Sequence record: PP430142.1
Direction: 5' to 3' (one strand)
Length of the DNA: 4,200 nt
Origin: Enterobacteria phage FrBurgundy
The position numbers and the translations under genes were made by a program. Shown one piece after another: positions 1-4,200 of the stretch (position 1 is the stretch's first letter; each line of letters begins with the position of its first letter). Below the pieces are notes generated by a model, which saw nothing but the letters and a program-made list of their open reading frames with translations, did no database searches and was not told where the DNA came from.

Positions 1-56
1 TCCCCCCTTAGGGGGTCACCTCACACAGCAGTATTTCACTGAGTATGAGAGGACAT
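1..56 (+). other. 5' untranslated region of a Qbeta-like ssRNA phage genome, with a 5'-proximal C-rich/G-rich hairpin (cccccc 2..7, loop tta, ggggg 11..15)
   Basis: Seen in sequence: C-run 2..7 can pair with G-run 11..15 across a 3-nt loop. No ORF begins before position 45. Resembles the Qbeta 5' leader as I recall it, which starts with G residues that are absent here. Confidence 0.7.
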
Positions 57-1319
57 ATGCCTAAATTACCACGTGGTCTGCGTTTCGGAGCCGATAATGA
101 AATTCTTAATGACTTTCAAGAGCTCTGGTTTCCAGATCTCTTTATCGAATCTTCCGACACGCATCCGTGGTACACACTGAAAGGTCGTGTGCTGAACGCC
201 CATCTTGACGATCGCCTACCTAACGTAGGTGGCCGCCAGGTTAGACGTACTCCACATCGTGCTACCGTTCCGATTGCCTCTACAGGCCTTCGTCCGGTAA
301 CAACCGTTCAGTATGATCCTACAGCACTATCGTTCTTATTGAACGCTAGTGTTGATTGGGATTTCGGTAATGGCGATAGCGCGAACCTGGTCATTAATGA
401 CTTTCTGTTTCGCACTGTTGCACCTAAGGACTTCGATTTTTCGAATTCCTTAGTTCCTCGTTATACTCAGGCCTTCTCCGCTTTTAATGCTAAATATGGC
501 ACTATAATCGGTGAAGGGCTCGAGACTATAAAATATCTCGGGCTGTTACTGCGCAGACTGCGTGAGGGTTACCGCGCTGTTAAGCGTGGCGATTTACGTG
601 CTCTTCGTAGGGTTATCCAGTCTTACCATAATGGTAAATGGAAACCGACTACTGCTGGTAATCTCTGGCTTGAATTCCGTTATGGTCTTATGCCTCTCTT
701 CTATGACATTAAAGATGTCATGTTAGATTGGCAGAAACGCCACGATAGGATCCAACGCCTCCTTCGGTTTTCAGTCGGTCATGGTGAGGATTATGTTGTC
801 GAATTCGACAATCTATACCCTGCCGTCGCCTACTTTAAACTTAAAGGTGAGATTACACTCGAACGCCGTCACCGTCACGGTATATCCTACGCTAATCGCG
901 AGGGATATGCTGTTTTCGATAACGGTTCCCTTCGGCCTGTGTCCGATTGGAAGGAACTTGCCACTGCATTCATCAATCCGCATGAAGTTGCTTGGGAGTT
1001 AACTCCCTACAGCTTCGTTGTTGATTGGTTTTTGAATGTCGGTGACATACTTGCTCAGCAAGGTCAGCTATATCATAATATCGATATTGTAGACGGTTTT
1101 GACAGACGTGACATTCGTCTCAAATCTTTCACCATAAAAGGTGAACGAAATGGGCGACCTGTTAACGTTTCTGCTGACCTATCTGCTGTCGATACATTTT
1201 ATAGCCGATTCCATACGAGCAAGCTTCCGTTCGCTACACTTGATCTCGATACTACCTTCAGTTCGTATAAACACGTTCTGGATAGTATCTCTTTATTAAC
1301 CCAACGCATTAAGCGTTGA
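57..1319 (+). CDS. A2: Maturation protein A2 (420 aa), which in Qbeta-like phages binds the F-pilus and also serves as the lysis protein by inhibiting MurA
   Basis: ORF track 45..1319 in frame. Product begins MPKLPRGLRFGADNEILNDF at the ATG at 57..59, preceded by a purine-rich Shine-Dalgarno-like gagagg at 47..52. Length of 420 aa and the sequence match my recollection of Qbeta A2. Stop TGA at 1317..1319. The lysis function is established knowledge for Qbeta, not visible in the sequence. Confidence 0.92.
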   Translation: MPKLPRGLRFGADNEILNDFQELWFPDLFIESSDTHPWYTLKGRVLNAHLDDRLPNVGGRQVRRTPHRATVPIASTGLRPVTTVQYDPTALSFLLNASVDWDFGNGDSANLVINDFLFRTVAPKDFDFSNSLVPRYTQAFSAFNAKYGTIIGEGLETIKYLGLLLRRLREGYRAVKRGDLRALRRVIQSYHNGKWKPTTAGNLWLEFRYGLMPLFYDIKDVMLDWQKRHDRIQRLLRFSVGHGEDYVVEFDNLYPAVAYFKLKGEITLERRHRHGISYANREGYAVFDNGSLRPVSDWKELATAFINPHEVAWELTPYSFVVDWFLNVGDILAQQGQLYHNIDIVDGFDRRDIRLKSFTIKGERNGRPVNVSADLSAVDTFYSRFHTSKLPFATLDLDTTFSSYKHVLDSISLLTQRIKR

Positions 1320-2352: not shown

Positions 2353-2372
2353 ATGCATGTCTAAGACAGCAT
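2353..2372 (+). promoter_or_regulatory. Coat-protein translational operator hairpin spanning the replicase start codon
   Basis: atgcatgtc-taa-gacagcat: pairs 2353-2372, 2354-2371, 2355-2370, 2356-2369, bulged A2357, then 2358-2368, 2359-2367, 2360-2366, 2361-2365, with 3-nt loop taa 2362..2364. The replicase ATG (2357..2359) lies in the 5' arm. An 8-bp stem with bulged A and 3-nt loop is the known Qbeta operator geometry. Confidence 0.8.
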
Positions 2373-4126
2373 CTTCGCATAACTCTCTCAGCGCACAATT
2401 GCGCCGAGCTGCGAACACAAGAATTGAGGTCGAAGGTAACCTCGCACTTTCCATTGCCAACGATTTACTGTTGGCTTATGGTCAATCGCCATTTAGCTCT
2501 GAGGCTGAGTGTATTTCACTCAGTCCGAGATTCGACGGGACCCCGGATGACTTTAGGATAAATTATCTTAAAGCCGAGATCATGTCGAAGTATGACGATT
2601 TCAGCCTAGGTATTAATACCGAAGCTGCTGCCTGGGAAAAGTTCCTAGCAGCAGAGGCTGAATGTGCTTTAACGAACGCTCGTCTCTATAGGCCTGACTA
2701 CAGTGAGGATTTCAATTTCTCACTGGGCGAGTCATGTATTCACATGGCTCGCAGAAAAATAGTCAAGTTAATAGGAGATGCTCCGTCCGTTGAGGGTATG
2801 TTACGCCACTGCCGTTTTTCCGGTGGTGCCACAACAACGAATAACCGTTCGTACGGTCATCCGTCCTTCAAGTTTGCGCTTCCACAAGCGTGTACGCCTC
2901 GGGCTTTGAAGTATGTTTTAGCTCTTAGAGCTTCTACACACTTCGATATCAGAATTTCTGATATTAGCCCTTTTAATAAAGCAGTTACTGTACCTAAGAA
3001 CAGTAAGACTGATCGTTGTATTGCTATCGAACCCGGTTGGAATATGTTTTTTCAACTAGGTATCGGTGGCATCCTACGCGATCGGTTGCGTTGCTGGGGT
3101 ATCGATCTGAATGATCAGACGATAAATCAGCATCGCGCTCACGAAGGCTCCGTTACTAATAACTTAGCAACGGTTGATCTCTCGGCGGCAAGTGATTCTA
3201 TATCTCTTGCTCTCTGTGAGCTCTTATTGCCCCCAAGCTGGTTTGAGGTTCTTATGGATCTCAGATCACCTAAAGGGCGGTTGCCTGACGGTAGTGTTGT
3301 TACCTATGAGAAAATATCCTCTATGGGTAACGGGTACACATTCGAGCTTGAGTCGCTTATCTTTGCTTCTCTTGCTCGTTCCGTTTGTGAGATACTGGAC
3401 TTAGACTCGTCTGAGGTTACTGTCTACGGAGACGATATTATTTTACCGTCCTGTGCAGTACCTGCTCTTCAGGAAGTTTTTAAGTATGTTGGTTTTACAA
3501 CCAATACTAAAAAGACTTTCTCTGAGGGGCCGTTTAGAGAGTCGTGCGGTAAGCACTACTATTCTGGCGTAGATGTTACTCCCTTTTACATACGTCACCG
3601 TATAGTGAATCCTGCCGATTTAATACTGGTTTTGAATAACCTATATCGGTGGGCCACGATTGATGGCGTATGGGATCCTAGGGCCCATTCCGTATATCTC
3701 AAGTATCGTAAGTTGCTGCCTAAACAGCTGCAACGTAATACTATACCTGATGGTTACGGTGATGGAGCCCTCGTCGGATCGGTCTTGGTCAATCCTTTCG
3801 CGAAAAACCGCGGGTGGATCCGGTACGTACCGGTGATCATAGACCATACAAGGGACCGAGAGCGCGTCGAATCGGGGTCGTATCTCTACGACCTCTTTTC
3901 GCGTTGCTTCTCGGAAAGTAACGATGGGTTGCCTCTAAGGGGTCCGTCGAGTTGCGATTCTGTAGATCTATTTGCCATCGATCAGCTTATCTGCAGGAGT
4001 AATCCTACAAAGATAAGCAGGTCTACTGGCAAGTTCGATATACAGTATATCGCGTGCAGTAGCCGTGTTCTGGCACCCTACGGGGTCTTCCAGGGCACGA
4101 AGGTTGCATCTCTACACGAGGTGTAA
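2357..4126 (+). CDS. rep: RNA-dependent RNA polymerase, replicase beta-subunit (589 aa)
   Basis: ORF track 2348..4126. The true start is the ATG at 2357 (MSKTASSHNSLSAQLRRAANTRIEVEG...), not the ATG at 2348. Catalytic YGDD motif at 3425..3436 (EVTVYGDDIILP). Length and sequence match my recollection of the Qbeta replicase beta-subunit. Stop TAA at 4124..4126. Confidence 0.95.
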   Translation: MSKTASSHNSLSAQLRRAANTRIEVEGNLALSIANDLLLAYGQSPFSSEAECISLSPRFDGTPDDFRINYLKAEIMSKYDDFSLGINTEAAAWEKFLAAEAECALTNARLYRPDYSEDFNFSLGESCIHMARRKIVKLIGDAPSVEGMLRHCRFSGGATTTNNRSYGHPSFKFALPQACTPRALKYVLALRASTHFDIRISDISPFNKAVTVPKNSKTDRCIAIEPGWNMFFQLGIGGILRDRLRCWGIDLNDQTINQHRAHEGSVTNNLATVDLSAASDSISLALCELLLPPSWFEVLMDLRSPKGRLPDGSVVTYEKISSMGNGYTFELESLIFASLARSVCEILDLDSSEVTVYGDDIILPSCAVPALQEVFKYVGFTTNTKKTFSEGPFRESCGKHYYSGVDVTPFYIRHRIVNPADLILVLNNLYRWATIDGVWDPRAHSVYLKYRKLLPKQLQRNTIPDGYGDGALVGSVLVNPFAKNRGWIRYVPVIIDHTRDRERVESGSYLYDLFSRCFSESNDGLPLRGPSSCDSVDLFAIDQLICRSNPTKISRSTGKFDIQYIACSSRVLAPYGVFQGTKVASLHEV

Positions 4127-4200
4127 CCTGGGAGGGCGCCAATATGGCGCCTAATTGTGAATAAATTATCACAATTACTCTTACGAGTGAGAGAGGGGTC
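4127..4200 (+). other. 3' untranslated region (truncated at the window end) containing two perfect hairpins
   Basis: Hairpin 1: ggcgcc 4135..4140, loop aatat, ggcgcc 4146..4151, extendable by a G4134-U4152 wobble. Hairpin 2: aattgtga 4153..4160, loop ataaatta 4161..4168, tcacaatt 4169..4176. The window ends in gagagaggggtc with no terminal CCA, so the 3'-terminal hairpin looks incomplete. Confidence 0.75.

Follow-up and report, generated by a model that had tools for sequence, protein, structure and literature searches.

An in-frame AUG upstream of the A2 start codon in a Qβ-group phage as the probable by-product of a recurrent A/G toggle in a long-distance regulatory helix

The stretch of DNA analysed here, referred to throughout as the window, is 4200 nt long, and its gene order and nucleotide identity mark it as an allolevivirus of the Qβ group (Qubevirus durum), with nearly the whole plus strand present. 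It has the four annotated genes that are shared with Qβ isolates, in the order A2, coat with its A1 read-through, and replicase; all features described below lie on the + strand. The A2 maturation/lysis protein gene occupies positions 57..1319, starts at a canonical AUG (57-59) and encodes 420 amino acids (MPKLPRG...), as supported by both the annotations and PDB matches. According to the annotation, the coat gene spans 1340-1741, its A1 read-through extends as far as 2338, and the replicase gene spans 2357-4126. The long A2 open reading frame matches the solved Qβ A2 of PDB 5VLZ (E = 1.3e-281), with residue 1 of that chain aligned to residue 5 of the query, and similarly matches PDB 5MNT (E ~1e-281) over its full length from residue 5. 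Among sequenced relatives FrHibiscus (PP430143.1) is 99.9% identical to the window, from which it differs internally by three single bases, at 776 (C/T), 1291 (C/T) and 2803 (A/G); the window would accordingly be a close variant of this genome or a different version of it. FrHibiscus is a viable plaque-forming phage that has been employed in published defence-system work. The closest distinct relative after FrHibiscus is FrMerlot, at 97.0% identity (3.0% divergent), and the other natural Qβ isolates range from 91.8 to 96.1%, with laboratory Qβ at ~94% and VK 7.9% divergent. At its 5′ end the window reads TCCCCCC (1-7), as does the FrMerlot record, without the true 5′ GGGG(G)A of HL4-9, VK, TW18 and Qβ, and its 3′ end (4190-4200) falls short of the Qβ 3′ terminus by ~20 nt. 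The absent 5′ G residues pair with CCUC at 19-22, and their loss alters how the leader is predicted to fold; where the 5′ end was restored for folding, the sequence GGGGGA was used, as found in HL4-9, VK and TW18.

Upstream of A2, an ATG at 45-47 lies in frame with the A2 start, 12 nt away, and the codons that link the two (AUG AGA GGA CAU AUG, or MRGHM) are free of stops, such that initiation at this upstream codon, hereafter AUG45, would add MRGH to the A2 protein. The open frame that holds AUG45 is bounded by a UAG at 9..11, the nearest in-frame stop upstream. An earlier reading of the letters by themselves, hereafter the sequence-only reading, had taken canonical Qβ to have AUA at this site and had proposed that a single A-to-G change created the AUG. 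Indeed, the laboratory records AB971354, GQ153931 and JF719735 all have ATA at the aligned site, and alignment to laboratory Qβ confirms that one A-to-G transition makes AUG45. Since the A2 start is numbered 57 in the window and 61 in Qβ, window position 47 equals Qβ position 51, and the G at position 47 (G47) corresponds to the substitution A51G. From the ATG trinucleotide frequency of the window (0.0145), the chance of finding at least one ATG is ~6% within the 4 codons upstream of the start and ~20% within the 15 open in-frame upstream codons. The in-frame ATG at 45 is statistically unremarkable.

The distribution of the two alleles was surveyed by aligning the obtainable Qβ-group 5′ leaders, which represent 11 independent lineages, and position 47 proved to be a polymorphic purine in this alignment. 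The sequence-only reading had allowed that reference genomes might also carry AUG here, and this is what we found: G (AUG) is present in 5 of the 11 lineages, namely FrHibiscus together with the window, GIII_C (Japan), HL4-9 (USA), TW18 (Taiwan) and VK (Japan), and A (AUA) in the other 6, namely laboratory Qβ (3 records), FrMerlot, FrSangria, BR12, BZ1 and one IMG/VR contig. That contig was the only further Qβ-like sequence returned when IMG/VR and JGI metagenomes were scanned with patterns for the leader. An exact 20-nt match to the A2 leader pattern (AGTATAAGAGGACATATGCC) at 2499-2518 of a human-gut metagenome contig was set aside, as it sits in an unrelated DNA context and looks to be a chance match. 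The allele is discordant with genome phylogeny, in that the close relative FrMerlot has A and the distant VK has G, and Fitch parsimony on a neighbour-joining tree requires a minimum of 4 A/G changes at this position (3-5 in 200 bootstrap trees). No upstream in-frame AUG was found in any of M11, MX1, SP, NL95 and FI, and all five G-allele GenBank records annotate A2 from the canonical AUG. Judged from the compared sequences, AUG45 is a common, recurrent and ordinary natural A/G polymorphism, documented previously in natural isolates as well as in laboratory populations.

The sequence-only reading had also placed the change within a structured 5′ leader that controls A2 translation, and folding, together with the literature discussed below, bears this out at long range, where position 47 falls within a predicted helix. 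The 5′ arm of this helix (CUGAGUAUGAGAGGA, 39..53) pairs with a 3′ arm (UCCUCGUUAUACUCAG, 455..470, with G460 bulged) located within A2 codons 133-139 (VPRYTQA), forming 15 base pairs with pair probabilities of 0.85-1.00 when 500, 900 or 1340 nt are folded. A second helix, between 54..61 and 366..372, covers the A2 start codon, and the two helices taken together have pair probabilities of 0.83-1.00. In RNA longer than ~470 nt the first helix is predicted to sequester both AUG45 and the Shine-Dalgarno (SD) element. Position 47 is base 9 of the 15-bp helix and its pairing with U462 has a probability of 0.98; correspondingly, AUG45 has an unpaired probability of 0.01 in RNA of at least 470 nt, and thus lies buried in stable structure, as the sequence-only reading had envisaged it might. 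Both outcomes, the AUG in other genomes and its burial, count against a special significance of AUG45. The local fold of 1-130 is no more stable than that of shuffled sequences (z = -0.63) and, the 5′ hairpin aside, gives no support for a specific local structure in the leader. An Rfam search over the whole window gave zero families at the gathering threshold.

Support for the long-distance helix comes from both energetics and comparison. The best duplex of the 5′ arm has an energy of -21.8 kcal/mol, versus -14.4 ± 1.9 kcal/mol for shuffled arms, and across 15 aligned genomes 92.9% of helix cells are paired, as compared to 34-51% when the partner is slid. In the same alignment three helix pairs show both-sided changes in M11/MX1; there the outer helix lies 3 nt (one codon) away from its aligned position, such that not all of these are counted as strict covariation. 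Full-length folds of M11, MX1, SP, NL95 and FI each pair the SD region with a segment ~400 nt downstream. An RNAduplex scan alone recovered the helix in the Qβ-group genomes and not in these five. Because only full-length folding places the helix outside the Qβ group, support for it across genera is weaker than within the group. Within the group, no variation is seen in the pairs next to the SD (49-53/455-459), and mismatches are permitted in the outer half of the helix (39-48/461-470), including A·C at 42/467 in FrSangria, BR12, VK and BZ1, G·A at 43/466 in FrMerlot and FrSangria, and A·C at 41/468 in TW18.

At the polymorphic pair itself, the 15 genomes comprise seven with AU, six with GU, and two outgroups in which 47 and 462 are unpaired. 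U462 is invariant within the Qβ group, so that A-allele genomes have an A-U pair and G-allele genomes a G·U wobble. Direct reading of the sequence shows that the codon for Tyr136 (UAU) begins at U462. Changing U462 to C would convert Tyr136 to His; therefore, only the 5′ partner at position 47 varies, toggling between A and G. The calculated duplex energy of the long helix is -19.5 kcal/mol with G47 and -19.4 kcal/mol with A47, and ensemble energies of the two alleles differ by at most 0.1 kcal/mol at lengths of at least 470 nt. Replacement of the A-U pair by G·U is thus predicted to be without energetic effect on the helix, a point that, like the recurrence of the change, goes beyond the sequence-only reading.

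Such an arrangement recalls the control of A-protein synthesis in Qβ, where a long-distance interaction reportedly described by Beekwilder, van Duin and co-workers is said to govern production of the protein. In that system the SD and start codon pair with coding sequence ~310 and ~410 nt downstream, leaving only nascent strands translatable, and the window repeats the Qβ helix base for base but for the G·U that takes the place of one A-U pair. We infer that the predicted helix is the published one. The Qβ maturation gene has been described as silenced through long-range structure (PMC2978339), with A2 translation timed by the interval until the polymerase makes the SD complement (PMC6071253). 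The MS2 maturation gene behaves similarly: its SD is paired at equilibrium, so that translation is confined to RNA that is nascent or has yet to equilibrate (PMC4615214, PMC6071253). In MS2, however, the SD has its complement upstream, within the 5′ UTR, and a delay in folding opens the time window, whereas the Qβ-type partner lies ~400 nt downstream and replicase transit time plays this role.

From these observations we propose, with good though not complete confidence, that G47 represents a near-neutral and recurrent A-U/G·U toggle within a regulatory helix, and that the AUG it produces is a by-product with no function as a start. According to this model A2 would be translated from AUG57 by way of the SD core GAGG (49..52), and only on the nascent plus strand. 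Once replicase had copied approximately nt 455-470 this segment would pair with 39-53, and 366-372 would pair with 54-61, thereby shutting the ribosome-binding site. At position 47, the A-U pair of laboratory Qβ and the G·U pair of the window would be equally tolerated. If correct, the site offers a small and clean case in which a codon that must be kept (UAU, Tyr136) in one strand of a regulatory helix leaves the opposite strand free to switch only between A and G.

The same site also features in laboratory evolution of Qβ. In Table 1 of PMC7354602, Hossain et al. 2020 list the UTR mutations G47A, A51G, A52G and A54G (Qβ numbering) in laboratory-evolved Qβ; their A51G is the same substitution that separates the window from laboratory Qβ, and it shares the SD/long-distance-helix arm with the recurrent laboratory changes A52G, G47A and A54G. 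Their Table 1 gives A51G at 45% in laboratory population 37.2_r1, such that G at Qβ 51 is a laboratory polymorphism in the tabulated data and the fixed state in the natural isolate considered here. A52G was fixed in 3 of 3 thermal-adaptation lines according to the same source and recurred in a co-evolution experiment; Kashiwagi and Yomo 2011 (PMC3150450, Table 3) list it together with G47A. In the passages and tables examined from these two papers (PMC7354602, PMC3150450) the mutation is labelled 'UTR', with no remark on the AUG that it creates, and a text search of the literature for A51G and Qβ returned nothing relevant, the mutation appearing only in a table (PMC7354602). In the published tables, purine transitions cluster in the 5′ arm and SD, at Qβ positions 47, 51, 52 and 54 (window 43, 47, 48 and 50). 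A52G turns AAGAGG into AGGAGG, a stronger SD. These data suggest that selection often acts on the A2 ribosome-binding site.

One might then ask if G47 (A51G) adaptively tunes A2 expression or lysis timing, through the ribosome-binding site or through nascent folding and not through the AUG itself, as the neighbouring A52G plausibly does. This alternative is unlikely in our estimation. It draws on the ~4 independent natural origins or losses of the allele, on the over-representation of leader sites 47, 51, 52 and 54 among laboratory-evolution mutations (PMC7354602, Tables 1 and 3; PMC3150450, Table 3), and on the rise of A51G to 45% in the same laboratory line in which A52G fell from 72% to 22%, as tabulated in PMC7354602. 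Moreover, extra G-C pairs that make the ribosome-binding site less accessible are predicted for the G allele at some nascent lengths (260-310 and 380-454 nt). Against this, the two alleles occur at about equal frequency in nature, and the energies of both the helix and the SD/anti-SD pairing (-5.8 kcal/mol for AUG57 in either allele) are the same. The allele-specific nascent hairpin is also lost once the true 5′ GGGGGA is added, and with the authentic 5′ end in place the A and G alleles are identical in nascent folds up to ~250 nt. The hairpin in question (46-49/20-23), which G47 appeared to stabilise by ~3 kcal/mol and which would have hidden AUG45, was discarded as an artefact of the truncated 5′ 'T' of the window. 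Similarly, the 257-263 segment with which the G allele would pair does not co-vary with the allele, being the window sequence in FrMerlot (A) and the laboratory Qβ sequence in GIII_C (G). The transient G-specific helix 42-48/257-263, predicted at 280-310 nt, was rejected on this ground.

Recurrence of the change and its 45% frequency in the laboratory could nonetheless reflect weak positive selection in place of neutrality. In an extended form of this thought, which we hold to be quite doubtful, the A/G difference at Qβ 51 would work as a natural dial: the G allele would slightly alter how ribosomes load onto nascent strands, either with the extra AUG as a weak in-frame start or decoy or through altered transient folding, and would thereby shift the dose of A2 and the time of lysis, and fluctuating selection would keep both alleles. 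Were this minority reading true, site 51 would provide an easy means of adjusting A2 dosage and lysis timing in a phage that is a classic model.

An alternative that concerns the codon directly is that AUG45 is a true minor start, from which G-allele phages would make an A2 isoform extended by MRGH, and this we regard as very improbable. The codon is in frame and stop-free up to 57, and it is retained in five viable plaque-forming isolates. Moreover, nascent-RNA models of 70-160 nt with the 5′ end restored leave AUG45 mostly unpaired (0.63-0.67) and AUG57 likewise (0.69-0.81), in values that are length- and model-dependent. AUG45 is thus predicted to be about as open as AUG57 in nascent RNA, and as far as structure is concerned it may be used in the translatable phase. 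Nor does burial in full-length RNA separate the two codons, because the SD of AUG57 is equally buried. The two codons are told apart instead by SD geometry, for which the sequence-only reading had described no well-spaced element for position 45 and had assigned gagagg (47-52) to position 57. Both statements hold: a functional start would be expected to have an SD ~5-10 nt upstream, and AUG45 has only GAG at 41-43, with a 1-nt spacer and a pairing energy of -2.2 kcal/mol, whereas the GAGG at 49-52 that serves AUG57 has a 4-nt spacer and pairs with the 16S 3′ end at -5.8 kcal/mol. This GAGG is invariant in all Qubevirus sequences compared. Furthermore, AUG45 overlaps the extended SD of AUG57, and from standard initiation geometry a 30S subunit bound to GAGG would set AUG57 in its P site. 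SD-independent initiation does happen at low levels in E. coli.

Conservation points the same way. A functional start should be conserved in close relatives, and the site is AUG in 5 of the 11 lineages and AUA in the other 6; with the AUG missing from about half of the close relatives as well as from M11, MX1, SP, NL95 and FI, it can have no conserved function. Invariance of the 12 bases between the two AUGs is due to the SD and therefore provides no coding signal. All solved A2 chains in the PDB start MPKLPRG, and these derive from A-allele laboratory Qβ. Taken with the SD geometry, the canonical start in the database records agrees with the sequence-only reading that initiation at 57 is most likely. 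AUG45 would be an accidental by-product, and it is almost certainly not used for initiation to an appreciable degree.

The replicase gene offers a precedent within the same genome. An in-frame AUG at 2348, 9 nt before the replicase start at 2357, is embedded in the replicase SD (UAAGGAUGA), and an out-of-frame AUG is present at 2353 as well. The replicase open reading frame is consequently listed as MKCMSKT..., and the annotations and PDB chains begin with MSKT at 2357. Like AUG45, AUG2348 lies in or abuts an SD, is in frame a few codons before the true start, and is not treated as a start; indeed, no annotated record and no structure-deposited replicase sequence begins there, which further argues against a minor start at AUG45. 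The two differ in that AUG2348 is invariant in the Qβ group (2348-2359 is the same in 13 of 13 sequences), whereas AUG45 is polymorphic. Finally, a sequencing or assembly error at position 47 has a negligible probability: the 5′ terminus of the window is clearly flawed (T at position 1, GGGG(G)A missing), but the same G occurs in five records from four studies in three countries (USA, Japan and Taiwan).

For annotation, the polymorphism means that ORF finders that take the first AUG following a stop will give a 424-aa A2 (MRGHMPKL...) in approximately half of natural Qβ-like genomes, where the 420-aa protein from 57 should be annotated. With respect to the replicase start, the record GQ153931.1 (QB_ancestral) reads GTG for ATG (AAATGCGTGTCT), and all other compared Qβ-group sequences have ATG at this position.
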